Under the pieces are notes generated by a model that did no database searches, had not been told where the DNA came from, and worked only from the letters and a program-made list of their open reading frames with translations. DNA of 12,463 bases. Origin: Candidatus Bathyarchaeota archaeon (GTDB lineage: Archaea > Thermoproteota > Bathyarchaeia > Bathyarchaeales > Bathyarchaeaceae). Each line of letters begins with the position of its first letter. Position 1 is the stretch's first letter. This document shows positions 1 to 11,332 of this stretch, piece after piece. The stretch is from contig JAUWZP010000055.1 of the NCBI GenBank assembly GCA_030615265.1, forward strand, positions 1 through 12,463. Direction: 5' to 3'. The translations under genes and the position numbers were made by a program.

Positions 1-1
1 G

Positions 2-18
2 GGGTTAATAATTTAAGG
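2..18 (+). promoter_or_regulatory. Partial copy R0: GGGTTAATAATTTAAGG, 85 bp upstream of R1
   Basis: A 17-bp identity with R1. The sequence diverges after AAGG. Confidence 0.4.
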
Positions 19-86
19 CGCACACAGTGAACAAAGCATTTATTGTAGGTCAATTTCTTTCTGGAATATGGTAAGAGAGAGAGTGT

Positions 87-115
87 GGGTTAATAATTTA
101 AGGAGAAAACTTCTA
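87..115 (+). promoter_or_regulatory. Conserved promoter-like motif, copy R1: GGGTTAATAATTTAAGGAGAAAACTTCTA
   Basis: 25 of 26 positions match the copy at 6323-6348. Copies R1, R3 and R4 share the 26-bp core; R0 and R5 share only the 14-17 bp TATA-like part. It contains the TATA-like AATTTAAG. Confidence 0.5.
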
Positions 116-125
116 GGCGTAGGAA

Positions 126-165
126 GGAGAATTTGTTCCTCCTTCACCACAAGTTTGAGCAGAAA
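126..165. repeat. Direct repeat DR1 with core TCACCACAAGTTTGAGCA (144-161), downstream of the Ntn-hydrolase gene
   Basis: The 18-bp core is identical to DR2 at 1159-1176, with additional flanking similarity (TT..TCC.C). Confidence 0.6.
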
Positions 166-266
166 AAAGAGGGAAGAATTCTTCAAACAGTGAAGAATGA
201 GATATTATAGTTTTTATTAAAAACCCTAAATAGAATAGGGAGAAAAAATGGAGAATGTCGTTCCTC

Positions 267-1079
267 TCACAACATGCGCTCGAATTCTTCGTATTCTCCT
301 CGATATTTTTTCTGTTGTATCCATTTGAAGCCATCATGGTGAGTTATGATAGCAATATCAATATCACCGCCAACATTTGGAACCATTGTAGCAAATCTTT
401 GGTAATCTTTTGTGGTGCGAATTAGAAAAACAGCGTAATCAATGGCGTCCTGCAGTGTCATTAATGCATAGTTAGGTTTAGCAATGGGAATCTCGGGGTC
501 TTTCTTCCAGAGTTTTGCAGCAACTCGTCCTTCTCCCCCACAAGTGCAACCATAGCCTTTCGTGTGTTTTGGCTCGATTGTAATTTTCCGTCCTATCTTA
601 ACGAGAAAGGTTTTCCCTATCTTTACATCTTTCTTATCATATCCAGCAACCTGAAAACCTACAACTAGGTGTTTCTCTGGAATCTTGGAGAGAATTTTTA
701 CTTCCTTCTTAACATTGTCATGCAAATAATCCGCGAGTTTGTGCGCTACTTCCTTCACTTTTTCCTCGCCTACTATTTTTAATTTCTCAAATTCCCTTAT
801 ATGGCTCTCAACAGTTCTCCCATTCAATGCAGGGGCACCATAAACGGCGACACCAATATTACGCTTTTCAATGTTGAAAAGTTTACGTCCAAAAGGAGAA
901 CTCCCTGCAGGCATACGAATAAGCGGCAGTTTCAATTCGGATATTTTTATGTCTTCTTCGCATTTTGGACACTTTGCTCCTAAGTCTTCTACTGGAATTA
1001 TCGTTGCTAATATGGAAACTAAACTATCGGTTGCGAGAACTATGCCATCGGGTACACGAACACTTATGGTTAACGTCAA
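267..1079 (-). CDS. Ntn-hydrolase, proteasome beta / HslV-like T1 threonine peptidase with a Cys-containing insertion (CPKC...CTC). The probable start is TTG at 1079, giving an N-terminal M-T-L-T-I-S-V-R.
   Basis: The N-terminus TLTISVRVPDGIVLATDSLVS matches the HslV/beta-subunit pattern: Thr1, Asp17 and a GxxK motif about 33-35 residues in. Upstream of the TTG the only in-frame start-like codon is a CTG, whereas the track ORF extends to 1331 and would overlap the divergent promoter. A TATA-like element AAAAATATTAAGTATA (1106-1122, minus orientation) lies about 27-43 nt upstream of the TTG. The size is 270 aa against roughly 175-200 aa for HslV or beta subunits, so there is an insertion of about 70 aa. 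Confidence 0.5.
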   Translation of the reverse strand: MTLTISVRVPDGIVLATDSLVSILATIIPVEDLGAKCPKCEEDIKISELKLPLIRMPAGSSPFGRKLFNIEKRNIGVAVYGAPALNGRTVESHIREFEKLKIVGEEKVKEVAHKLADYLHDNVKKEVKILSKIPEKHLVVGFQVAGYDKKDVKIGKTFLVKIGRKITIEPKHTKGYGCTCGGEGRVAAKLWKKDPEIPIAKPNYALMTLQDAIDYAVFLIRTTKDYQRFATMVPNVGGDIDIAIITHHDGFKWIQQKKYRGEYEEFERML

Positions 1080-1143
1080 TTTAACTCCCCTGTTGTATTG
1101 TTGTGTATACTTAATATTTTTTGCTCCAGAAAACAGGAAAAAG

Positions 1144-1180
1144 GAAAGGTTTTCTCCCTCACCACAAGTTTGAGCACACG
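1144..1180. repeat. Direct repeat DR2 with core TCACCACAAGTTTGAGCA (1159-1176), in the divergent promoter region between the Ntn-hydrolase and RHH genes
   Basis: Identical 18-bp core, same orientation as DR1. It lies about 35-75 nt upstream of the Ntn-hydrolase TATA element. Confidence 0.6.
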
Positions 1181-1237
1181 CACAGCAAAGTTTATATTGT
1201 GGTTTCACAGTTCCTTCGTGTATGGCTGTGAATACCC

Positions 1238-1801
1238 ATGCCAAACGTGACAATAAGTGTTCCTGAAAAGCTGAAAATTGAGATGGATAAGATTCCTGAG
1301 GTTCGTTGGTCTGAAATATGTCGTGACGCAATTTCTCGGTATATCGCGCAAAGGAAGAACCCTACTCCCAGAATTGAATTAGAACTTCGCAATGCAACAT
1401 TAACTCATAGCGACATTAGAACTGGATATCCAACATTGGCAATGTCCCTAAGGATACATAACAAAATGGATTCAGAAATCACTGTTGATAGAATAATAGT
1501 ATCTGATGCTGTGTTCATTCCACCAGGTGGGGGTCATAGTTATGGAATTGGTACCGCCTACGACCTCCATAAGAGAAATATCAACCCACATGCTGTTGGC
1601 GGAGCAATGGTTTTTCTGACTTTACCAAAAGACAAAATTGACGATCTTAAAGACGCTTTTGACTCAACGTTCGATTGGCGCGCCAGCGGTACTGTGTACG
1701 TTGAAGGTTTCAAGAATGAGTATCGAACAGATATGCACGCAAGGATTCCGATTGACGATTGGAAATCAGTTGTGAAAAAAGTTTTGAAAGAACCAAAATA
1801 G
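1238..1801 (+). CDS. Ribbon-helix-helix (CopG/antitoxin-like) DNA-binding domain protein with a C-terminal domain of about 140 aa of unknown function
   Basis: The N-terminus VTISVPEKLKIEMDKIPEVRWSEICRDAISRYI has the typical RHH pattern: a beta-strand followed by two helices, with a conserved W-S-E. The ATG start is at 1238. The gene is divergent from the Ntn-hydrolase gene and they share a 160-bp promoter region. Confidence 0.55.
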   Translation: MPNVTISVPEKLKIEMDKIPEVRWSEICRDAISRYIAQRKNPTPRIELELRNATLTHSDIRTGYPTLAMSLRIHNKMDSEITVDRIIVSDAVFIPPGGGHSYGIGTAYDLHKRNINPHAVGGAMVFLTLPKDKIDDLKDAFDSTFDWRASGTVYVEGFKNEYRTDMHARIPIDDWKSVVKKVLKEPK

Positions 1802-1811
1802 AGTTGGTAAA

Positions 1812-1896
1812 GGCGAGGTGAGCGAAGCACGGTGTTAGCACGCAATCGGCTCACGTCAATCCAGACGTTGGGTCGATTCGCTTAACCTCGCCGCCA
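1812..1896 (+). repeat. Imperfect long inverted repeat or stem, not a canonical tRNA. GGCGAGG-t-GAGCGAA pairs with TTCGCTT-aa-CCTCGCC around a 50-nt interior, and the element ends in GCCA.
   Basis: The pairing was seen directly: 7 bp, then a 1-nt/2-nt asymmetric internal loop, then 7 bp. An interior mini-hairpin CGTC-aatcca-GACG is also present. It lies between convergent genes (1238..1801 + and 1925..2494 -). The 7-bp outer stem plus a discriminator-like G and CCA looks like a tRNA acceptor end, but no D, anticodon or T arms can be drawn. Confidence 0.3.
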
Positions 1897-1924
1897 ACTA
1901 CAAGATCATAGATAGCGTAGTTTA

Positions 1925-2494
1925 TTAGTTCTTCTCCTTGCTAAAATCCATGATTGAGTAGATTTCGGGGTATCGTTGCCTCAGCTTTGCTCGTGCCATT
2001 AAGCGTGTCACCTTGTCAGGGGAATAAGCTTCGTCAATCAGCCTTCTCAATCTAAGCTCTCTATAGGATTTAGCGATTGCGTGAGCGGTTTCAGCAGTAA
2101 TTGTTTTTCCTGCAATCCAAGCATATTTCGCTCCTAACTTGATTCCTTTACCGATTCCTGTACCAATGATTTTTAGCGCTTTTCCTAGGTCGGGGTCTAT
2201 GACTTCAACTGAGATAGGATTTCTCGAGTCCGTCTTCTCTTCAAAAGCCTCGTCCAATGCGTCAGAATAATTTCTTGCGATAACCACAATGCTTTCACCG
2301 TCTCCTTTACGCTTAGAATACTGGAAATTGATAGTGAAGGATTTTGGCTTGTCGGTCTTAATCAATTTCTTACGAGTGAAAGTAGGAGTAGTTCTTGTGC
2401 CTTTCCCACGGACATAATCGCTTACTCGGTCACCAGTTTTCTTTTGATAACTTCTTACATGGTGCCTAATTGGGGATTTACGCTTCTTTGCCAT
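1925..2494 (-). CDS. Hypothetical protein with a very basic N-terminus (MAKKRKSPIRHHVRSYQKK...) and a Gly-rich IGTGIGKGIKLGAKYAWIAGK segment
   Basis: A long ORF with an ATG start at 2494. A TATA-like TTAATATAATTATGG sits immediately upstream on the minus strand. I do not recognise a conserved family. Its neighbourhood with a tyrosine integrase suggests mobile-element cargo. Confidence 0.5.
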   Translation of the reverse strand: MAKKRKSPIRHHVRSYQKKTGDRVSDYVRGKGTRTTPTFTRKKLIKTDKPKSFTINFQYSKRKGDGESIVVIARNYSDALDEAFEEKTDSRNPISVEVIDPDLGKALKIIGTGIGKGIKLGAKYAWIAGKTITAETAHAIAKSYRELRLRRLIDEAYSPDKVTRLMARAKLRQRYPEIYSIMDFSKEKN

Positions 2495-2846
2495 TTAGCT
2501 CATTTCCATAATTATATTAAGAGTTTAACCTTAAAATAGTATTTGAGGTAAAGCATTCGGGAGAACGTGCTTTGTCTCAATGCCGTAGGAGTGAAGGTTC
2601 GGGTGTTTGACTTCATTCCTGCGGTAAAAGTGAATGGAGTAGAAGAAAATTCCTTTCAAAGAAGGAGTATATCACGAAAAGCGACATGGACGAGGTGTAA
2701 GATTCCGTTTCTGTAAAAAATGTGGTAGGCGATTAAAGGAAGGAGAGAAGATTTACAAAAGGATAAGTTACAATAAGGCTTCTTTAACTCCATGCCGCAT
2801 AATCGGTTATTACTGCGAGGAATGCCGCGATGCTCTTTACATTTAG

Positions 2847-3320
2847 GTGAGAGTGAGTGAAGTGGTAGGAAAGAAAGGAATGAAACAATCAGGACATAGA
2901 ACCTTCACATATAAGGAACGGAAATTCAACTCGTTCGGTAGAGGTGGACTATTAGACTACTTTACGCCTAAATCAAGCCCAGAAGAAATAAGGTATTCCT
3001 TTAGGACAAAGCATAATCATGAAATGTCCCTATCAGAAGCTAAGTTAGTTGCTAGGAGTGTAGATGAAAAGTTGGCTGAAGATAACAGAGAATTCAGAAC
3101 TGATATGGTCGATACTATACTACACTTTGCTAATGTCTTTGACGTATCCAACATCGAAGCATTCGCACTGACATGCTACTTATACAAGGCTATAGGTGCA
3201 AAAGAGAACCTTACAAAGAGAGAACTCGGGGATATTACTGAGAAGACTATACGAGAAGCGAATAAACTCCGGGAGATGAATTGGGATTCCTTTATGAGAA
3301 TCCTTAAGGAAGTTTCCTGA
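2847..3320 (+). CDS. Hypothetical protein. The start is uncertain: GTG at 2847 or ATG at 2880.
   Basis: A 157-codon ORF. A purine-rich stretch lies before ATG 2880. It is followed by the G6-C-T7 terminator-like element at 3393-3408. No recognisable family. Confidence 0.45.
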   Translation: MRVSEVVGKKGMKQSGHRTFTYKERKFNSFGRGGLLDYFTPKSSPEEIRYSFRTKHNHEMSLSEAKLVARSVDEKLAEDNREFRTDMVDTILHFANVFDVSNIEAFALTCYLYKAIGAKENLTKRELGDITEKTIREANKLREMNWDSFMRILKEVS

Positions 3321-3392
3321 CGCTACCGTATAAGCCCTCCAAGAATCGAGAAAAACCAAAATGGGGTACTATCTACTAGATATATTATTTAA

Positions 3393-3408
3393 GGGGGGCT
3401 TTTTTTGA
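3393..3408 (+). terminator. AAGGGGGGCTTTTTTT, a G-run followed by a T7 tract, giving an archaeal oligo-T terminator
   Basis: The T7 tract lies about 75 nt downstream of the 2847..3320 stop. Archaeal RNA polymerase terminates at T-runs of 5 or more. Confidence 0.4.
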
Positions 3409-3472
3409 TCTTTTCATTCAAAACATTATTATCCCAATTGTCTATATCTATAATTTGTCAAGACATAGTTGA

Positions 3473-4315
3473 ATGGGAAGTTGTATCATGGCTATCGCAA
3501 TGCGTGACAAGATGCGTGAGTACTATCAAAAGGAGAAAGAGAAGGACATAGGTACCGATGTGTCAAAGCCAGAAGTGCTTGAAAAAGATAGGGGAGAAAG
3601 GCGTACTTCTATAAGGCGTGGTGGTGTAGGGAATCCTTACGTGGGGAAAGGTGGAAGGTACAAAGACAAAGTAGAGACAGTTTTAACAGAAGTAGAGTAC
3701 GAGCATTATTTGAAGAACGCTAAACAACTAGAGACAAAGAGACTAGATCAGAAAGAGAATCCTTCATATCCTTTCGATTATCGTGTTCAAGTCTTCAGCA
3801 TAAGTGGACTTCTAGCAATGTTATACTACACTGGATTACGAATAACAGAAATCGTAGGAGATGTTCCACACAAATACTTTTTGAAAGATGGCACAGAGAA
3901 ATGGACTAAAGATTTTCACGGACTACGAAAAATGGACTTAAGTATCAAAGACGATCTTTTGAAAGTTGACGTTAAGGAAGCACGTAAGCACGGTAAGAGA
4001 GAAGAGCCGTTATGGATTCCTTTAGATAAGTTAGGAGTAGATTCAATTGTTGAAGTGTGGGAATCTTCAAAAATTCCTGAAGATAGGATTTTTCCAATAA
4101 CGAAGTGGTTAAGTTGGAAATTGATCTCATTAGTTACAGAAGGAAGACTTTATCCACATTTCTTCCGTTTGAATAGAGCAACAGAATTTGCGAATAATCC
4201 AGAAACCTCTCTTCTTGAACTAAAAAAATGGTTTGCGTGGGCTGACGCGAGAACTGCTAGTTTCTATATGGGTAGAGCAGGACGTACAACAAAGAAGATG
4301 GCGGATAGGTTGTAA
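3473..4315 (+). CDS. Tyrosine recombinase / phage-type integrase
   Basis: Motifs of the catalytic domain are present. LLAMLYYTGLRITEI is the box I Arg. HFFRLNRATEF is the HxxR motif. WADARTASFYMGRAG aligns with lambda Int GHKSDTMASQY, with Trp in place of the second His as in Cre, followed by the catalytic Tyr. A TATA-like TATATCTATAATTTG lies upstream. Confidence 0.8.
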   Translation: MGSCIMAIAMRDKMREYYQKEKEKDIGTDVSKPEVLEKDRGERRTSIRRGGVGNPYVGKGGRYKDKVETVLTEVEYEHYLKNAKQLETKRLDQKENPSYPFDYRVQVFSISGLLAMLYYTGLRITEIVGDVPHKYFLKDGTEKWTKDFHGLRKMDLSIKDDLLKVDVKEARKHGKREEPLWIPLDKLGVDSIVEVWESSKIPEDRIFPITKWLSWKLISLVTEGRLYPHFFRLNRATEFANNPETSLLELKKWFAWADARTASFYMGRAGRTTKKMADRL

Positions 4316-4529
4316 ATCATGGGAGAGTTGGTGAGTATCTGGAAGCATGTGAAAGAGCGCGTGGAATCCCTTCTTGAGTCTGCGGGCACACCGCCATTAT
4401 CTGCAGCGCTTTGTTAGGCTTTGTTATTATGGTCTAAAGTTATGACTACATGCATGCATGCCTTCTGATTTAGCACACTTAATTTAAATAACTCCACCAA
4501 CTTCATGGTGTTTTATAAGGAGGGTTCGA

Positions 4530-5090
4530 ATGCCCAGAGTTGAAGCTTCTATCAGAATCGAAAACGTCGTGGGCACTGCCACGTTAAATCAGAGGATTGA
4601 CCTAAACGCAGTGGTGAAAGGTTTTCCGGATGTTGATTACCGTCCAGAACGGTTTCCGGGACTGGTCTTCAGATTAAAGAGACCCAAAACGGCTATCCTA
4701 ATCTTCAATTCAGGGAAGATGGTTTGCACCGGAGCCAAGTCCGAGAAGAGGGCAAAGAAGGCAATTAATAAAGTTGTAAAGGAACTGAAGAAGAGCGGGG
4801 TCATCATCCTTGGCAAACCCGAAATCAAAATAGTGAACATGGTTGCGTCAGCGAGTTTAGGAGGATTGATAGACCTTGAGAAGTCAGCCTACTCGCTTAA
4901 GAGAAGCATGTATGAACCCGAACAGTTTCCTGGTCTCATCTACCGAATGGATGAACCAAAAGTTGTTATTCTTCTCTTCACAAGTGGGAAACTTGTTTGC
5001 ACAGGAGCCACGAAGGAAGAAGACGTCCACGAAGCGGTTGCCAAACTTCATAAGAAACTCGAGGAAGAAGACCTGATATACTACGAGTAA
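4530..5090 (+). CDS. tbp: TATA-box binding protein (archaeal TBP) with two direct repeats and an acidic C-terminal tail
   Basis: ENVVGTATLNQRIDLNAVV...RPERFPGLVFRLKRPKTAILIFNSGKMVCTGAKSE, followed by the second repeat NMVASASLGGLIDLEKSAY...EPEQFPGLIYRMDEPKVVILLFTSGKLVCTGATKEE. RBS AAGGAGGG is 7 nt before the ATG. TATA TTAATTTAAATA is at 4481-4492. Confidence 0.93.
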   Translation: MPRVEASIRIENVVGTATLNQRIDLNAVVKGFPDVDYRPERFPGLVFRLKRPKTAILIFNSGKMVCTGAKSEKRAKKAINKVVKELKKSGVIILGKPEIKIVNMVASASLGGLIDLEKSAYSLKRSMYEPEQFPGLIYRMDEPKVVILLFTSGKLVCTGATKEEDVHEAVAKLHKKLEEEDLIYYE

Positions 5091-5169
5091 ATGTGATTGA
5101 AACCCCATGCGCGCAAGTGCAAGTTATATATAGTCCAAAGAGAAAGTAAAGCCAAAACGAACAAAAGAG

Positions 5170-5382
5170 GTGAAATACGTGACAAAGGGTACAGTGGCGA
5201 AATGGCTCGGCGAGAGAGGCTACGGGTTCATTAAATGCGAAGATGGCAAAGAAATCTTTGTTCATAAGTCGGATATCCAGGGCAAAAGCAGTCTCAAAGA
5301 AGGAGAAAAAGTAGAGTTCGAAGTGACAGAAGGCACAGGTAGAGGACCGAGAGCCGTCAAAGTTAAACCGATTTCTGAATAA
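5170..5382 (+). CDS. csp: Cold-shock domain protein (CspA family). The start is GTG at 5170 or, more likely, GTG at 5179, giving MTKGTVAKW.
   Basis: GTVKWF-like N-terminus [30 protein letters not shown] carries the RNP1-like GYGFI and RNP2-like FVH motifs. AGAGGTGA RBS precedes GTG 5179. TATA TTATATATAG at 5124-5133. Confidence 0.85.
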
Positions 5383-5423
5383 ATCGAGAACATTTGTCGA
5401 AGATTCAAAAATCGGTTTAAATT

Positions 5424-5440
5424 ACCGGGGTTTAATTTTT
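5424..5440 (+). terminator. CCGGGGTTTAATTTTTC, a G/C-rich segment followed by a T5 tract downstream of csp
   Basis: An oligo-T tract about 45-55 nt after the csp stop. Confidence 0.3.
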
Positions 5441-5573
5441 CTTCTGATTTGTAGATTGGTTCTACCTTTCCCTAAAGCGCGCGCAGCTTGTGTTAACTTA
5501 TATAAGCAAGAGCGTTTGTTTCTGATAAGGTCTTTCACTTGTCCCTACGCGCGCAACGTAAAGGTGAGCATGA

Positions 5574-6260
5574 ATGAGGAATAGAATATGGGCTGGAAGA
5601 GGACGTCCTAGAGGTAGCCATCGCACACGCGACATTAGAATTCTTGAGTACCTTGTAGAACTCGCTACGAAACACGGAATCACCACATGCGAATTTTTTA
5701 ACGCAATTGTAAGCGCATGGGAAAATGGAAAAGCCAAGTGTAGAGGATTAAATGTTCAATGTCGCATAAAGAAAAAAGGTCGCGCCATCTTTCTCATAAC
5801 AAAAGGCTACACGGTGGTCGCTCAATTTCCAATACACGAAAACATCCTCAAAGAAACTGACCCGCTCAAAGGGTTTGACTATGTGCGTGAACGCGTTAGA
5901 CGCGTTTCCGAAATGAAAGAAAGGAAAAGGCTTGACCTTAGCCATCTAAGCATCAAAGATTTGAAGGCTGGAATGAAGAAAATTCACCTGAAAGCTCGAG
6001 TCACCGAAATTTCAAAGCCAAAACTAGTCTTAACGAGGTCCAACGATTACGCCGTCTTTGCCAACGCAACGCTTTCTGACGAAACCAGTACAATCAAGCT
6101 GACTCTATGGAACGGACGCGTCAACATGGTTTCCATCAACGACATGGTTCAAATTGAAAATGCAAAGGTCATCATGTTTAGAGGTGAAAAACAGCTGAGA
6201 ACAGGAAGATACGGCAGATTGAAAGTCCTTGAAACCAATCCGATAAATGTAATTCAATAA
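5574..6260 (+). CDS. Nucleic-acid-binding protein: an N-terminal winged-helix-like region plus a C-terminal OB-fold (SSB/RPA/tRNA-anticodon-type)
   Basis: The C-terminal ~110 aa KKIHLKARVTEISKPKLV...DETSTIKLTLWNGRVNMVSINDMVQIENAKVIMFRGEKQLRTGRYGRLKV follows the OB-fold pattern seen in archaeal SSB/RPA (..DeTG.i.ltlWd.......gd.v.i.na.v.....). The N-terminal ILEYLVELATKHGITTCEFFNAIV looks like an HTH. The start is ambiguous: ATG at 5574 or 5588. Confidence 0.5.
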   Translation: MRNRIWAGRGRPRGSHRTRDIRILEYLVELATKHGITTCEFFNAIVSAWENGKAKCRGLNVQCRIKKKGRAIFLITKGYTVVAQFPIHENILKETDPLKGFDYVRERVRRVSEMKERKRLDLSHLSIKDLKAGMKKIHLKARVTEISKPKLVLTRSNDYAVFANATLSDETSTIKLTLWNGRVNMVSINDMVQIENAKVIMFRGEKQLRTGRYGRLKVLETNPINVIQ

Positions 6261-6317
6261 GCTCATTGCTAACTCACGGTCCTGAGCGCGCGCATTTTAT
6301 TAATATAGGATTTTTCC

Positions 6318-6348
6318 CATCCTTAATAATTTAAGGAGAAAAGTTCTA
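6318..6348 (+). promoter_or_regulatory. Conserved promoter-like motif, copy R3: CCTTAATAATTTAAGGAGAAAAGTTCTA, 65-71 nt upstream of the zinc-ribbon gene
   Basis: Its position relative to the gene start and its TATA-like core support a promoter role. Confidence 0.55.
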
Positions 6349-6412
6349 TACCCACGAGGTTTGGAGAGCAATTAAACTAATTAATATCTAACATGTTAAA
6401 TGATTTGAAGTG

Positions 6413-6685
6413 ATGATTATGGAAGGAACACAAGGTCAAATCTGTCAAAGTTGTGGAATGCCAATGCGGAAGAACGAAGATTTTGGAACAAACACAGATG
6501 GAAGCAAGAATGAAGAGTACTGCCATTATTGCTATAAAGAGGGAAGATTTACAGATGAAGGAATTACAATGGAAGAGAAAATCAAGAAAAACATAGAAAT
6601 GGCTACGAAAGTGGGAATGGCAGAAGAAGAAGCAAGAGAAATGGCAAACAGTATCATTCCAAAGCTCAAGAGATGGAAGAAGTAA
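6413..6685 (+). CDS. Small zinc-ribbon protein (CQSCGMPM...DFGTNTDGS.NEEYCHYCYKEG.F, a putative-zinc-ribbon family seen in methanogens and Firmicutes)
   Basis: A characteristic CxxCGMP...DGS...YCxYCY motif with a C-terminal acidic/basic helix. The track ORF starts with GTG at 6410; ATG codons lie at 6413 and 6419. The conserved promoter-like motif lies 65-70 nt upstream. Confidence 0.6.
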   Translation: MIMEGTQGQICQSCGMPMRKNEDFGTNTDGSKNEEYCHYCYKEGRFTDEGITMEEKIKKNIEMATKVGMAEEEAREMANSIIPKLKRWKK

Positions 6686-6791
6686 ATACTAACAATGTTC
6701 ATCTTATCACAATTAGGTTGTTCAGGTTCTACATACATCTTCTTTAGATAACACCAATACCTGTTCTCAGAGAGGAATAGGTTTTAACAGT

Positions 6792-6983
6792 TTACTCTTC
6801 AGAAGCTTCCTTCCACTTTTCAACTGTTAGTTTGTCATCTCCAGCTTTGAAAGATATCTTCAGCTTCATTGAGGTTTTAGTTTTGAATGGAAACATGCTG
6901 TCTTCTGCTAAGTCTAATGGAACATATAGTAAGTACTTGCCATCTTTTCTTCTGAATAATCTTCCTCTTCCTTCATTAACCAT
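6792..6983 (-). CDS. Small protein of 63 aa, MVNEGRGRLFRRKDGKYLLYVPLDLAED..., possibly an AbrB/swapped-hairpin-like DNA binder
   Basis: The track ORF starts at a TTG at 7028. An internal ATG at 6983 is preceded by AAGGAG at the right spacing. The GRGRLFRRKDGKYLLYVPLDLAED segment weakly resembles AbrB/MazE-type hairpins. Confidence 0.4.
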   Translation of the reverse strand: MVNEGRGRLFRRKDGKYLLYVPLDLAEDSMFPFKTKTSMKLKISFKAGDDKLTVEKWKEASEE

Positions 6984-7226
6984 TGTCAAGTCTCCTTTCT
7001 CAGATTTTGAGCCATTCTTATTGTTCAAGTATACATAAAGGTTTGCTCTTTCCCTCTTCTTTTACAATTAGTTCTTTTGTTTCTGCTATAACCTTTCCGC
7101 TTTTCTCACTTTAGAACTCAGTACGATTATTCATAACTTCTGTGCATGCATGTGTTTTATTAGTGCTGAGCAAATGGGAATCCAAAACATTCCTTCTTGA
7201 GTTCATGAGTTATTAATGTTTAAGTA

Positions 7227-7248
7227 TTCTTAATCCTTAAATTATTAA
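7227..7248 (-). promoter_or_regulatory. Partial motif copy R5: CCTTAAATTATTAA, matching 14 bp of the core
   Basis: Matches the TATA-like half of the motif on the minus orientation, roughly 200-240 nt upstream of the 6792..6983 gene. Confidence 0.3.
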
Positions 7249-7327
7249 TGCAACTTGAAAGGAAATGATGATAAGATGAATTGACCATGTGAGAGACTTT
7301 CTCTGTCTGACAATCAACCACAGTAGG

Positions 7328-7657
7328 CTAATCTGGATAATATGTTGGTGGTTTTATGAGAAAGGAAGCAGAGAACAAAACAATGGATAGAATGAGAGCA
7401 AAGATTCCTATAGAAAATGCGAGTATCATGGTCTTCTTCAGATTTTCTTCTGCTCCAACACCTGAGTTGAGTAACATTACTGCCAAAAGTGTTACAAGGA
7501 AGGAGATATTCGCTATGGTGGCTGAAATGAGCATAACGGTCCTTATGGCTTGGGGTATCCCAAAAGGTAGAATGGATGCAAGAGTCCAAGCACCACTAAC
7601 GAACAACATCAGAAGTGACATGAGAACCAACCAAACTGGCGGTCTTTGCTCTATCAC
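7328..7657 (-). CDS. Small integral membrane protein with about 3 TM helices
   Basis: A hydrophobic 109-aa ORF with a GTG start at 7657. The conserved promoter-like motif lies 70 nt upstream, in matching orientation, at 7727-7754. Confidence 0.5.
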   Translation of the reverse strand: MIEQRPPVWLVLMSLLMLFVSGAWTLASILPFGIPQAIRTVMLISATIANISFLVTLLAVMLLNSGVGAEENLKKTMILAFSIGIFALILSIVLFSASFLIKPPTYYPD

Positions 7658-7726
7658 GAGTTTACCACATTTTTGTGAATAGAGAAACTAAGCATTAAAC
7701 CTTGTGCTTTCCGTTCTAACGAGATA

Positions 7727-7754
7727 TAGAACTTTTCTCCTTAAATTATTAACC
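7727..7754 (-). promoter_or_regulatory. Conserved promoter-like motif, copy R4, in inverted orientation: TAGAACTTTTCTCCTTAAATTATTAACC
   Basis: It is the reverse complement of R1 with 27 of 28 positions matching. It lies 70 nt upstream of the GTG start of the minus-strand membrane-protein gene, and also in the divergent region with the wHTH regulator. Confidence 0.55.
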
Positions 7755-7853
7755 AAACCCAAACCAAAAGATGAATAGAGAAACTGTATGCCAAATTCTT
7801 AGCTGGAATTCTGAAAGGATAAATAACTCATACCCAACACATGAGAAACGGGT

Positions 7854-8180
7854 TTGCCCAACATGCGGAGGTCAAAACTGGAAACCCATATTGACATTCT
7901 TGAAGCCCTAGCTCGACGGGGACCGTTAATGCTAACTTTTATCATGCATGAGACTCACATAAGCTACAGCCTTCTGAATCAATACTTGAACTTTCTAATC
8001 CAACACGACCTCGTTGAAGACCAAACACCGCACAAGAAAAGGCATGGAGCTGAGGCTGTTTACGCAATTACTGAAAGAGGTAGAATTGTCCTAGGATACT
8101 TCAAGAAGCTAAATACTGCATTCCAAGTAGTTGAGGAAGCAAAAAAGACCACACCGTTGATGCATATAACACGTAGTTAG
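7854..8180 (+). CDS. Winged helix-turn-helix transcriptional regulator
   Basis: LETHIDILEALARRGPLMLTFIMHETHISYSLLNQYLNFLIQHDLVE...AVYAITERGRIVL shows the helix-turn-helix plus wing pattern of small archaeal wHTH regulators. Confidence 0.6.
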   Translation: MPNMRRSKLETHIDILEALARRGPLMLTFIMHETHISYSLLNQYLNFLIQHDLVEDQTPHKKRHGAEAVYAITERGRIVLGYFKKLNTAFQVVEEAKKTTPLMHITRS

Positions 8181-8437
8181 GCATTGTCTGGTTGCTGGTG
8201 GACTTTACTATGAAGACGCCAAACTATTCTACAAAAACGGCGAGCATCTGATATAATAAGGCCTACTGAAGAATTGAATATCAAGCAAGATGAAGTAAGA
8301 CACTAAAGAATCGTTGCGTTTAGCGTAGAACAAACCCCTCAGGCTATGCTATTTGGGTATATTTCTTCATCATAACTAACCTTAAACCAGCCAACCGGAG
8401 ACATGGTCTCGGATGTTATAGCAAAAGAGGCTTCTCC

Positions 8438-8551
8438 ATGATCCAGAAGATATATCACGGCATTCCGTTGCATGTTTGCCAGTCTTGCGGTTGGCGTTGG
8501 AACAGTTTTGAAGCCAGAAAATGCCCGAAATGCGGAAACGAACTTTTATGA
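8438..8551 (+). CDS. 37-aa zinc-ribbon peptide, MIQKIYHGIPLHVCQSCGWRWNSFEARKCPKCGNELL
   Basis: Two CxxC pairs 13 residues apart. AAGAGG lies 8 nt upstream of the ATG. It is below the ORF-track length threshold. Confidence 0.4.
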   Translation: MIQKIYHGIPLHVCQSCGWRWNSFEARKCPKCGNELL

Positions 8552-8563
8552 ATTATTGATTGG

Positions 8564-8637
8564 AAAAAAAGGGGAGTTTGCGGGGAAAATCGAGAGATAT
8601 CTCCAAGGTGAGTAGGGGTTCAAACCCGTGGTTGCAT
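8564..8637 (+). repeat. Copy A of a ~65-nt structured repeat: A7, then GGGGAG-TTTGCGGGG...ATCTCC, then AAGGTG, then GGGG-TTCAAA-CCC
   Basis: Aligns with copies B and C (see findings). On the minus strand it lies immediately 3' of the ICMT-family stop codon and ends in a T7 run. Confidence 0.5.
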
Positions 8638-8638
8638 A

Positions 8639-9199
8639 TTAAATGAATCTTGGTACTTCTTTGCAGTAGTCATCGTATTCTTCTTTGAATTGCTCTCTTA
8701 GCCAAGGTTCTTCAATGAAAGGAGTGAGTAGAAACCAGATGTTACCTATGATGCCCGTGACAAGTGCATAGAAAGAATTGAAGAGTAGTATAGTTCCTGA
8801 AAAGAATAGAACAACCGCAACATACTGTGGATTTCTTGATTATCTGTAAGGGCCTTTAGTAATCAATTTTCCCTTCAAGCCCAACGACGTGTTAATGGTT
8901 AAAGTTCGCAAAGCCCAGAGGAAAACAATCGCCCCCGCAACCATAAAGATGAAAGCGAAAACAAAGCGCAACCAATGAGTTAGAAAAAGTGCGTTCCAGT
9001 CAAGAAAACCTAAAACAAGAAAGCAGAATATGGAACTTTCTGTTAGAAGGTGTGTGTACCAGTATTGCCATGAGCCTTTCTTCGGAGGAGGCCATACTCT
9101 ATACTTTGGGTAAAGCAACGACACTATGAGACCCCCACCTAACAGAAATTCAAGAACAAGAGTTACCGTAAATAATGCGAATTCGATAGTCATATCCAT
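8639..9199 (-). pseudogene. Isoprenylcysteine carboxyl methyltransferase (ICMT) / phospholipid methyltransferase family gene interrupted by an in-frame TAA at 8840-8842
   Basis: The translation reads ...LITKGPYR*SRNPQYVAVVLFFSG...FLLTPFIEEPWLREQFKEEYDDYCKEVPRFI in a single frame. The family motif GPYR[YF]xRHPxY and the C-terminal EExxLxxxFGxxYxxYxxxVPR are intact except that the aromatic codon (TAT/TAC) after GPYR is TAA. About 5 TM segments. Confidence 0.7.
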
Positions 9200-9280
9200 G
9201 AACAATAAGAAACTGGCACACTAATCTTTTATGCAATTTGTGTTTGCATGACAAATCAAGTTTAACATGTAAGAAGTAAA

Positions 9281-9345
9281 CAAAAAAGGGGGAGATTGGG
9301 TGATGTCTCCACGCGGTGGGGGGTTCGAATCCCCCTAGGCTTCTT
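9281..9345 (+). repeat. Copy B of the structured repeat: A6, then GGGGGAGA-ttgggtgatg-TCTCC, then ACGCGGTG, then GGGGG-TTCGAAT-CCCCC. The last part is a perfect tRNA T-arm-like hairpin.
   Basis: GGGGGTTCGAATCCCCC is a 5-bp stem with a 7-nt TTCGAAT loop, identical in form to a tRNA T arm. No acceptor, D or anticodon arm can be built around it. Confidence 0.5.
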
Positions 9346-9879
9346 TGAAGGGTGAAATGGGACCAAAACATTTTAGATACATTGACGTATATCTTAGCTC
9401 CACAAGGATGGTTAGTATGAAAGGAAAACGTAACGTTTTCACTTGCTTTCTGAAAGGTAATGTAGCCATGCATGCGTGTGTGGTGTTGTAAGTGGTGAAG
9501 GCTAAGCGAATTAAAGAGTTAGAGAAGAAATACGAGGTAGTATCTCTGATATTGGGTCCGAAAGACAAAAGTGGGTTACGAATATGCTCTGTTCCAGAAA
9601 AAAAGTTAAGGGCATTAGCGAAGTGGCATCAGGGGCACCATACTCCAAGAAAGTGGCATTTAAGCGAGGATAAAAATCACCTAATCCTTGAGTAGAAACG
9701 AGATAGTAGGTTTGTAGAGTTTTCATAAATAGAGGCGCGTAAATGTTACCCTGTGAAGGGTATGTGTGATCCCCTACTACTTGGGGATTCACACAATTCG
9801 CGCCGTTCGCTTGCCTCTGGATTTTGAGGTAATACATATCAAATTTATGAAGGAGGAATCAACATTCGGAATAAACAGA

Positions 9880-9940
9880 AAAAAATGGGGATTTGCGGGG
9901 GGCATCTCCACTGTGGGGAGGATTCAAGTCCCTCTCCGAT
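9880..9940 (+). repeat. Copy C of the structured repeat: A6-T, then GGGGAT-ttgcggggggc-ATCTCC, then ACTGTG, then GGGAGG-attcaagtc-CCTCTC
   Basis: Shares GGGGA-TTTGCGGGG with A and ATCTCCAC..GTG.GGG..TTCAAG.CCC with B. It lies 79 nt upstream of the 4Fe-4S gene start. Confidence 0.5.
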
Positions 9941-10018
9941 ATTTTCCTAGAACCAACTGGCTAAGAACAGGAAATAAATATGTGCATGCGTATGCTGAGA
10001 GTGTGGAACTGATGCGGT

Positions 10019-11086: not shown

Positions 11087-11146
11087 GATCGTACAGAATC
11101 ATGCATGCGTACATAATCTACTAGAGCTTTTAAGCAAACTTCTCTA

Positions 11147-11160: not shown

Positions 11161-11332
11161 GGTGATAGAATGAGAAGAATCAAAACCTTGAAATGCATGC
11201 ATGAGGGACCATCATCCTTGAAACAACCATTGGGGCAGACTACCGATTCTCAATCCCTAAGTCGATACGGCATATGCTTATACCAGAAGAGCCGATACGA
11301 ATAACGATTGAGAAGATAGGGGGCGAGCACAA

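Follow-up and report, generated by a model that had tools for sequence, protein, structure and literature searches.

Three copies of a composite repeat in the window

The window considered here is the entire public contig JAUWZP010000055.1 (12,463 nt) of a Candidatus Bathyarchaeota archaeon. It carries three copies (A, B and C) of a short composite repeat, in which a conserved module is followed by a tail resembling a tRNA T arm, and which is likely to stem from the integration of mobile elements into tRNA genes. Using a composite pattern (AAAAAANGGGG, 10-30 nt, TCTCCA, 9-16 nt, TTCRA), exactly three matches could be distinguished, all on the + strand, at positions 8564, 9282 and 9880, while 200 dinucleotide-preserving shuffles of the window gave none (expectation 0.00). 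A profile hidden Markov model (HMM) of the repeat family, for which copy B was itself among the ~53 sequences used in building, placed the copies with nhmmer at 8557-8627 (E 4.6e-8), 9274-9336 (E 3.5e-12) and 9871-9937 (E 5.5e-12). The original prediction of three repeat copies in this part of the contig is thus borne out. The copies and their parts are as follows:

8564-8629, + strand: copy A, whole (pattern, profile HMM)
8564..8605, + strand: conserved module of copy A, comprising A7, GGGG, AGTTTGCGGG, an insertion of ~10 nt and AGATATCTCCA (pattern match, nhmmer E 4.6e-8)
8614..8629, + strand: degenerate, imperfect T-arm-like tail of copy A, A-GGGG-TTCAAA-CCCG-T (sequence reading, GGTTCAAACCC match)
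9282-9335, + strand: copy B, whole (pattern, profile HMM)
9282..9311, + strand: conserved module of copy B, comprising A6, GGGGG and AGATTGGGTGATGTCTCCA (pattern, HMM E 3.5e-12, row in the 60-sequence alignment A2)
9319..9335, + strand: perfect tRNA T arm of copy B, GGGGG-TTCGAAT-CCCCC (sub-threshold Rfam matches to T arms of tmRNA and others, sequence reading)
9879-9934, + strand: copy C, whole (pattern, profile HMM)
9879..9910, + strand: conserved module of copy C, comprising A7, T, GGGG and ATTTGCGGGGGGCATCTCCA (pattern, HMM E 5.5e-12, row in alignment A2)
9918..9934, + strand: T-arm-like tail of copy C with 4/5 pairs, GAGGA-TTCAAGT-CCCTC (sequence reading, GATTCAAGTCC match)

Within copy A, the A-run (8564-8570), GGGG (8571-8574), GCGGG (8580-8584) and TCTCCA (8600-8605) can be recognised, with the insertion (8585-8594) placing this copy in a subfamily whose arms are 10 nt longer. 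The A-run and TCTCCA occupy 9282-9287 and 9306-9311 in copy B, and 9879-9885 and 9905-9910 in copy C, respectively. The three tails differ from one another and tRNA likeness ends after the T arm in each of them; the tail of copy A is followed by GGTTGCAT, which is no tRNA acceptor strand, and that of copy B by the non-acceptor sequence TAGGCTTC. All three copies are retained in a strain variant (L312; family loci and related contigs are numbered with the prefix L) which is 99.3% identical to the window. Five of the 39 differences between the two cluster within 17 nt (8554-8570) spanning the left edge of copy A with its A-run, while the rest of the three copies is nearly unchanged, with a single difference at 9336.

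A family of conserved arms in the Bathyarchaeia

Related loci were gathered by a pattern scan of species-representative genomes, which gave bacterial noise besides dozens of Bathyarchaeia loci, and, subsequently, by searching IMG/VR and JGI metagenomes for the best-conserved portion of the repeat. After the profile HMM search the family comprised 222 copies at 165 loci, with two to five copies at each of 33/165 loci. Among the titled loci that truly belong to the family, 26/28 derive from Bathyarchaeia or Bathyarchaeota, with one each in a Thermoproteota single-cell genome and an unclassified bin. In the literature found, neither this Bathyarchaeia family nor its conserved arm motif is described.

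The conserved module, or arm, spans ~35 nt (A6-8, GGGG, ..GCGGGWGAYRTCTCCA) and forms a sharply bounded alignment block, consisting of the A-run, GGG(G), a short variable stretch, GCGGG, W, GA, YR and TCTCCA. A linker of ~7 nt and then GGGTTCRAATCCC follow. There is no conservation upstream of the A-run, and the sequence downstream of the T arm is highly variable in the family alignment. Among the 108 copies with a GTTCRA-type T loop, TCTCC and the G of GTTCRA are 12-13 nt apart in 102; no such loop was found in 99 further copies. The A-run and TCTCC are separated by either 17-21 nt or about 10 nt more, a bimodal distribution in which copy A falls into the longer class. As ~10 nt corresponds to one helical turn, by which the same face of the DNA is kept, this fits recognition by a protein, while such a step would be arbitrary for an RNA loop.

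In the multi-copy loci the median spacing of copies is ~1.2 kb, with 26/53 gaps below 1.1 kb, and the spacings in the window (717 and 597 nt) fall inside the family range (124 to 4865 nt). Single accessory genes lie between the copies of the arrays L246, L233, L196 and L203, from which integrases are absent. BLASTP clustering of 337 flanking open reading frames (ORFs) gave no conserved neighbouring gene. Where a gene occurs within 200 nt downstream of a copy, it is convergent in 76 and co-oriented in 48 cases. At 7421-7517 of L013, two opposite modules converge on one T arm, in the order module, T arm and reverse-complement module. This arrangement could be the product of recombination between inverted sites, enabled by the dyad symmetry of the T arm.

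Duplication of neighbouring tRNA 3' ends in copy tails at related loci

A partial tRNA 3' end downstream of an intact gene for the same tRNA, as left by integration at an attachment (att) site, was found in ten cases at related loci. In these an intact tRNA gene is situated 0.6-5.4 kb upstream on the same strand, and its sequence from the T loop to the 3' end is repeated in the copy tail. For example, the tRNA-Arg(CCT) gene of L054 (5517-5593) ends in GGTCGTGGGTTCAAATCCCACCCCGCCCGTT, while the tail of the copy 2 kb downstream reads GGTCGTGGGTTCGAATCCCACCCCGCCCGTT. Further pairs involve tRNA-Phe (L102, 3.1 kb), tRNA-Leu (L225, and L025, in which two copies have tails duplicating the upstream tRNA), tRNA-Cys (L032, L286 and L248), tRNA-Pro (L213) and the tRNA of L256. 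The copy is located downstream of the tRNA on the same strand in 10/11 high-scoring cases. The match score was reached by 10/24 pairs from the same locus and strand, as against 2.1% of 5,514 cross-locus comparisons.

The identity between tRNA and tail starts in or just before the T loop and reaches the tRNA 3' end, including CCA if this is encoded, plus 2-4 nt. Near-identical arms likewise part company here, with L038 and L084 diverging right after the T loop, and L255, L262, L258, L238 and L087 after GGGTTC. Such duplication is classically seen where an element has integrated site-specifically into the 3' portion of a tRNA gene, at the T-loop sublocation. In L099 (~690-720) and L075 (~6150-6180) the T loop is followed by TGTCCTCTATCTGA(A/T)TAG and then by GGACCGGTG or a close variant. 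GGACCGG also forms the 5' end of the tRNA-Val of L058, and ARAGORN detected no tRNA at the L099 and L075 sites. This sequence may represent an unusual or intron-containing tRNA adjoining the junction.

Integrases linked to the family

Between the tRNA-Arg and the copy of L054 only two genes are present, giving the order tRNA, integrase, DNA methylase and copy. The integrase gene, which starts right after the tRNA, encodes a tyrosine recombinase of 287 aa (PF00589, 7.8e-15; phrog_1, 2.2e-22), whose best NCBIfam matches are weak, being to XerA and integron-integrase models and far below their cut-offs. A family HMM of this L054-type integrase (PF00589) recovered full genes or fragments, next to the tRNA or the module, in 25/165 loci. 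The integrase adjoins the tRNA in L054, L032, L194 and L265, and the copy in L158, L185, L035, L087 and others. Most often the integrase gene runs on the other strand and has its stop codon 30-70 nt past the copy (L035, L087, L185, L204, L240 and L251). In L158, a tailed-virus contig from IMG/VR with a tail-protein match, the module, core and integrase follow in sequence on one strand, which is an attP-like arrangement in a virus genome. C-terminal integrase fragments occur beside tRNAs or copies in L032, L070, L113 and L111 and thus point to decayed elements.

The window itself encodes a candidate integrase at 3473-4315 on the + strand, to which the original prediction had drawn attention. 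This ORF matches PF00589 only with E 0.015 and has no PHROG, NCBIfam or PDB match. The domain is found in 6/30 of its homologues, and the protein is probably a divergent tyrosine recombinase, as first supposed. No relation to the module-linked integrase family could be detected by BLASTP or hhalign, and no module or tRNA occurs within 10 kb of its homologues, so that it was rejected as the integrase responsible for the copies. Coming from another family and not found beside modules, it provides no evidence for an att origin of the repeats. The surroundings of the homologues resemble mobile elements, containing restriction-modification and primase-like genes (DUF3987, D5_N) as well as small unknown ORFs, which suggests that the left 8 kb of the window contig is itself derived from a mobile element.

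Genes within and beside the window array

The following genes lie between the copies or directly to their left:

8438..8551, + strand: small zinc-ribbon gene on the left flank of the array (Pfam Zn_ribbon_3, E 4.5e-5), ending 12 nt before the A-run of copy A
8639..9205, - strand: ICMT/PEMT-like membrane methyltransferase gene between copies A and B (translation; PF04191/PF04140 in the L312 counterpart)
9492..9695, + strand: 67-aa ORF between copies B and C (ORF list; gene called at this position in L312)

The ICMT-like gene is broken by an in-frame TAA (8840-8842), which in translation (GPYR*SRNPQY) falls inside a GPYR-x-SRNPQY motif. Its counterpart in L312 is intact, encoding 184 aa (PF04191/PF04140) with TAT (Tyr) at the same position, and the stop codon in the window reflects either a nonsense mutation of recent date or an error in sequencing. 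The coding status of the 67-aa ORF, which has no Pfam or PHROG match, is uncertain. A homologue of the zinc-ribbon gene in L308 has a longer C terminus and no module directly after it. To the right of the array there are widely conserved genes of host type, encoding a Fer4 and a Band_7 protein.

Interpretation as probable element-side attachment junctions

The copies are likely to be element-side att junctions, each made up of a constant arm and a tRNA T-loop core, of integrative elements that target tRNA genes in the Bathyarchaeia. The membership of the window copies in the family, the duplication of tRNA 3' ends, the linkage to integrases, the fixed geometry and the attP-like virus contig are shown and support this. 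Of the origins listed in the original prediction, it is accordingly that from successive integrations, with degenerate tRNA-3'-end attachment sites as their remnants, which gains support, as in related loci the tails copy upstream tRNAs and tyrosine integrases flank the copies.

These elements, which would include both viruses and small islands, would use a tyrosine integrase to enter the 3' part of tRNA genes. Each would carry the constant arm of ~35 nt (A-tract, GGGG, ..GCGGGWGAYRTCTCCA) beside its crossover site, and, 12-13 nt from the arm, a tRNA-like core with the 5' strand of the T stem and the T loop, usually also including the 3' strand of the T stem and the acceptor 3' strand of the target tRNA. 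In the terminology of att sites, a copy would represent a P arm plus core, of the attR or attP type. Recombination in or beside the T loop, where the exchange point probably lies, would restore the tRNA at one end of the inserted element and leave the arm joined to the displaced tRNA 3' fragment at the far end. Repeated insertions, followed by loss of the integrase, may then give rise to arrays of short gene units, each closing with an arm plus a T-arm fragment. In the window, where the copies presumably arose by this route, three such junctions within 1.4 kb would separate the ICMT-like gene and the small ORF, beside ordinary host genes, with the ICMT-like gene being the likely cargo of a former element. 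Whether the arm serves as a binding site for the integrase or an accessory protein, with the A-tract acting as a bend, is about an even bet within the att explanation. The T6-8 run which the arm presents on the opposite strand probably also stops transcription arriving from the core side, which in the window would be that of the ICMT-like gene.

Several observations weigh against the att interpretation. At the family level, the matching tRNA of L241 is on the wrong side, the T loop after the arm is missing in about 40% of copies, and the module-linked integrases are only 27-47% identical to each other while the nucleotide conservation of the arm is much higher. The long arrays examined are devoid of any integrase, which serial integration plus decay fits less well. 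In the 12.5-kb window, ARAGORN detected no tRNA gene and no remnant of the linked integrase family occurs anywhere. A cognate tRNA and an integrase on the same contig, with a copy tail reaching the tRNA 3' end, are thus not found here, and no tail of copies A, B or C runs on into a recognisable acceptor strand. As the window tails lack acceptor strands and differ from one another, the att claim for the window rests on family membership, from which the three copies would be relic junctions in a small island of flexible genes. Strain variants (L312 and L322-L324) extend the window by 650 nt to the right and 429 nt to the left, and contain no tRNA in these extensions. The Fer4 homologues (L313-L316), considered as a source of an upstream tRNA or empty site, are more distant and not syntenic, and a window-specific 32-mer is absent from IMG/VR.

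Alternative explanations

The tRNA-like appearance of the copies invites RNA-level explanations. A tRNA gene with acceptor, D, anticodon and T arms is not found at the copies; ARAGORN predicted none, and the Rfam tRNA model had no match in the window even at E<=10, in agreement with the original view that these are not tRNA genes. The Rfam comparison proposed alongside that view gave no match to the copies at the gathering score, and below it only the 17-nt T arm of copy B (9319-9335) matched tmRNA and other models containing a T arm. A tRNA, a split or permuted tRNA and tmRNA were rejected on this basis, with T-arm fragments alone matching. A mini-tRNA with acceptor-like pairing of GCGGG with CCCGC after the T arm was likewise discarded, as 62% of cells pair in 60 sequences, these pairs being mostly G-C by composition with one apparent covariation in L071. 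The palindrome GGWGA-NN-TCWCC was dismissed as a selected inverted repeat, since a mismatched T..T is commonest by eye in the copies listed, with no covariation.

The explanation first preferred, that the copies are genes for small structured tRNA-like RNAs, is highly improbable. It could account for the strong sequence conservation, for the G-U pairs that favour the + strand and for the AT-rich, TATA-like stretches 20-30 nt upstream of the GGGG in some copies. However, neither the consensus fold nor the compensatory changes of a conserved structured non-coding RNA emerged. The alignment of 215 copies yields no consensus structure on either strand (RNAalifold energy 0.0), single-sequence folding z-scores are weak (-0.8 to -1.8 on the + strand and -0.5 to -1.7 on the - strand), and the first hairpin is thermodynamically unremarkable. 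In a clean alignment of 60 sequences this hairpin has no pair with changes on both sides, with the qualification that the search patterns included TCTCC, which left this side of the hairpin little room to vary and makes its invariance in part a product of the search. All five pairs of the T arm covary, yet only 73% of T-stem cells pair and 27% do not, as is expected if the two strands often stem from different partners. This covariation is inherited from different tRNAs, and the tail copies a neighbouring tRNA or is absent. The stem changes between copies B and C, originally taken as covariation, are thus real sequence differences, of which the cause lies in T arms from different tRNAs or in att variants; across the family, stem covariation lends no support to a conserved structured RNA. 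Scarcely credible is an origin as self-mobile, tRNA-derived repeats akin to short interspersed nuclear elements (SINEs) or miniature inverted-repeat transposable elements (MITEs), or as the 3' halves of split tRNA genes. Many copies are intergenic, some tails are unrelated to tRNA and the T arm hints at tRNA ancestry. Against the former, a constant full-length unit with its own termini is missing (target-site duplications were not looked at systematically), as the 3' part varies and matches the local tRNA, and the repeat scan gave no terminal inverted repeats; the SINE/MITE suggestion in the original prediction is therefore abandoned. Against the latter, intact tRNAs with the same 3' end lie upstream, so that the fragments are duplicates rather than sole 3' halves, and a constant leader would be unable to pair specifically with differing 5' halves.

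Two other explanations retain the DNA elements but assign the arm or the units a different role. The arm might act mainly at the transcript level, with its GC-rich segment and T6-8 run on the minus strand forming an archaeal terminator or 3' untranslated region for the genes reading into it (in many elements the integrase, at copy A the ICMT-like gene). The six loci in which an opposite-strand integrase gene stops 30-70 nt from the copy, the excess of convergent over co-oriented downstream neighbours (76 vs 48), and the T-run of the arm, which is the first long T-run past the ICMT stop codon, would fit this. It is nonetheless very unlikely, as the integrases of L158 and L054 are on the strand of the arm while the arm-core arrangement is still the same, and a T-run alone would suffice, leaving the invariant GCGGG..GA..TCTCCA and the fixed distance to the T loop unexplained. 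A scan for intrinsic, bacterial-type terminators (GC-rich hairpin with a 3-8 nt loop and T-run) lists no minus-strand site at the copies, where a plain T6-7 run of the archaeal signal type is present. The original remark on this run is pertinent in view of the integrases reading towards it in six related loci. It is unlikely, too, that the units represent a cassette-type system, in which an integrase acting in trans captures short integrase-less units (~0.4-3 kb), each ending in a site, and shuffles them at tRNA genes. The units would then be comparable to integron cassettes or cis-mobilisable elements rather than to decayed full elements. The 33 loci with two to five closely spaced copies, the arrays L233, L196, L246 and L203 with one accessory gene per unit and no integrase, the best, if weak, NCBIfam matches of the family integrase to integron-integrase and XerA models, and the separability of the arm from the tRNA tail all speak for such a system. 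Gene orientation within units is mixed, however, no circular cassette or empty site was observed in the loci, integrase fragments lie beside many single copies as decay would predict, and the contigs are short, so that integrases may lie just outside. The defining features of integron attC cassette arrays are also wanting, given the mixed orientation, the conserved sequence and an integrase score of 53.5 bits against an IntI cut-off of 265 bits. A fairly unlikely, bolder form would be a tRNA-anchored cassette system of the Bathyarchaeia, in which the arm and an exchangeable T-loop core make up a portable site and units are stacked, excised and reshuffled by a XerA/IntI-like integrase in trans. 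The window copies would then be the ends of three cassettes, in an archaeal, tRNA-based counterpart of the integron.

Comparison with known systems

As att junctions, the copies can be compared with several systems. The T-loop sublocation of integration within tRNA genes was reportedly described by Williams in 2002. As with the attL/attR partial-tRNA repeats of tyrosine-recombinase elements, in this family one end carries an intact tRNA and the other directly repeats its 3' part, an integrase lies beside the att site, and the identity block extends from the T-loop region to the tRNA 3' end. Archaeal att sites require extra nucleotides beyond the shared core, according to a review of archaeal integration in which the Bathyarchaeia are not covered (0 mentions; PMC8371274). 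Unlike in attL/attR systems, the ~35-nt arm of the family is conserved in nucleotide sequence across elements targeting Arg, Leu, Cys, Phe, Pro and other tRNAs. In lambda-like attP sites, arm-type sites are conserved element-side sequences at a fixed distance from the crossover. By analogy, the family arm may be likened to these, with the A-tract as a plausible bend element, although the family integrases are short (~220-320 aa), XerA-like and without a demonstrated arm-binding domain.

The tycheposons of Prochlorococcus form islands seeded at tRNA genes, where neighbouring elements are separated only by a partial tRNA copy and degenerate remnants, scattered extra partial tRNAs, cargo genes and fragmented integrases occur (10.1101/2020.12.28.424599). 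These islands particularly resemble the family, in the elements separated by partial tRNAs, the accumulating remnants and the cargo. They differ in being bacterial, in using another recombinase family and in their fragmented integrases, none of which occur in the arrays examined here; a conserved arm motif does not appear in the term-searched passages of their description. Integron attC arrays share the short gene units that each end in a recombination site with inverted repeats, but conserve structure where the family conserves sequence; the family furthermore has mixed gene orientation, a tRNA-anchored site and no visible attI/IntI platform. Elements of the mascRNA/MALAT1 type and split tRNA halves, like the copies, have a T arm with an A-rich tract upstream. 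The mascRNA model gave 16.2 bits (E 5.3) with copy B, against a gathering score of 42.5 bits, and the copies differ from both in lacking an acceptor stem or consensus fold and in having tails that duplicate complete tRNA genes. The behaviour of the family thus matches that of known tRNA-targeting integrative elements. What is unusual is the conservation of the arm across differing tRNA cores, and the integrase-less arrays at ~1-kb spacing.

The Bathyarchaeia are very abundant sediment archaea with very few cultured members, and their mobile elements are barely described. What appears to be a novel tRNA-like RNA family becomes interpretable as a set of markers of past mobile-element integration in this group. 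The arm (A-run, GGGG, ..GCGGGWGAYRTCTCCA) could be used as a simple sequence tag for element ends, flexible gene islands and viral attP sites in metagenomes. It could help to delimit proviruses, to link viruses to hosts through the tRNA core, and to prevent mis-annotation of partial tRNAs. If the arrays are truly mobilisable cassettes, they would constitute a new route of gene exchange in archaea.

Further features of the window contig

The left part of the window (1-8500) resembles mobile-element DNA, with an RHH/VapB-like protein (1238-1801) and many ORFs without a family match. It further encodes, in the style of a second copy, a TATA-binding protein (TBP, 4530-5090), whose presence marks the window as archaeal. 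Other products of this part are a cold-shock protein, an SSB-like OB-fold protein, two zinc-ribbon proteins and a winged helix-turn-helix regulator. A winged-helix gene of the HTH_45 family (7854-8180, + strand) is situated upstream of copy A. In L111 a homologue (927-1148; 35% identity over 81 aa) lies a short way upstream of a further module copy, and such a gene may be recurrent near the end of these elements.

A repeat of 26-28 nt, TTAATAATTTAAGGAGAAAAGTTCTA(TA), occurs three times in the window (90-115 and 6323-6350 on the + strand and 7725-7752 on the - strand), two copies being exact and one having a single mismatch, where none are expected. Two of them, at 6323 and 7752, precede ORF starts (6410 on the + strand and 7657 on the - strand, respectively) by about 60-70 nt, and the repeat resembles a promoter or 5'-leader element shared within the left, mobile-element-like part of the contig. 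At ~400-430 of L322, immediately to the left of window position 1, a T8 run and then a G10 run directly precede a further partial copy of the TTAATAATTTAAGG repeat, and it is at this T8-G10 run that the window contig starts. Palindromes of the ATGCATGC type are in excess, with 27 matches (<=1 mismatch) against 8.2 expected, and cluster in intergenic spots (4448-4463, 7142-7153, 9466-9477, 9982-9991, 11099-11110 and 11193-11204 of the window, and 1-430 of L322). The site at 11099 differs from L312 by one CATG unit, and similar GCATGC runs are found near module copies in L111 and L163.

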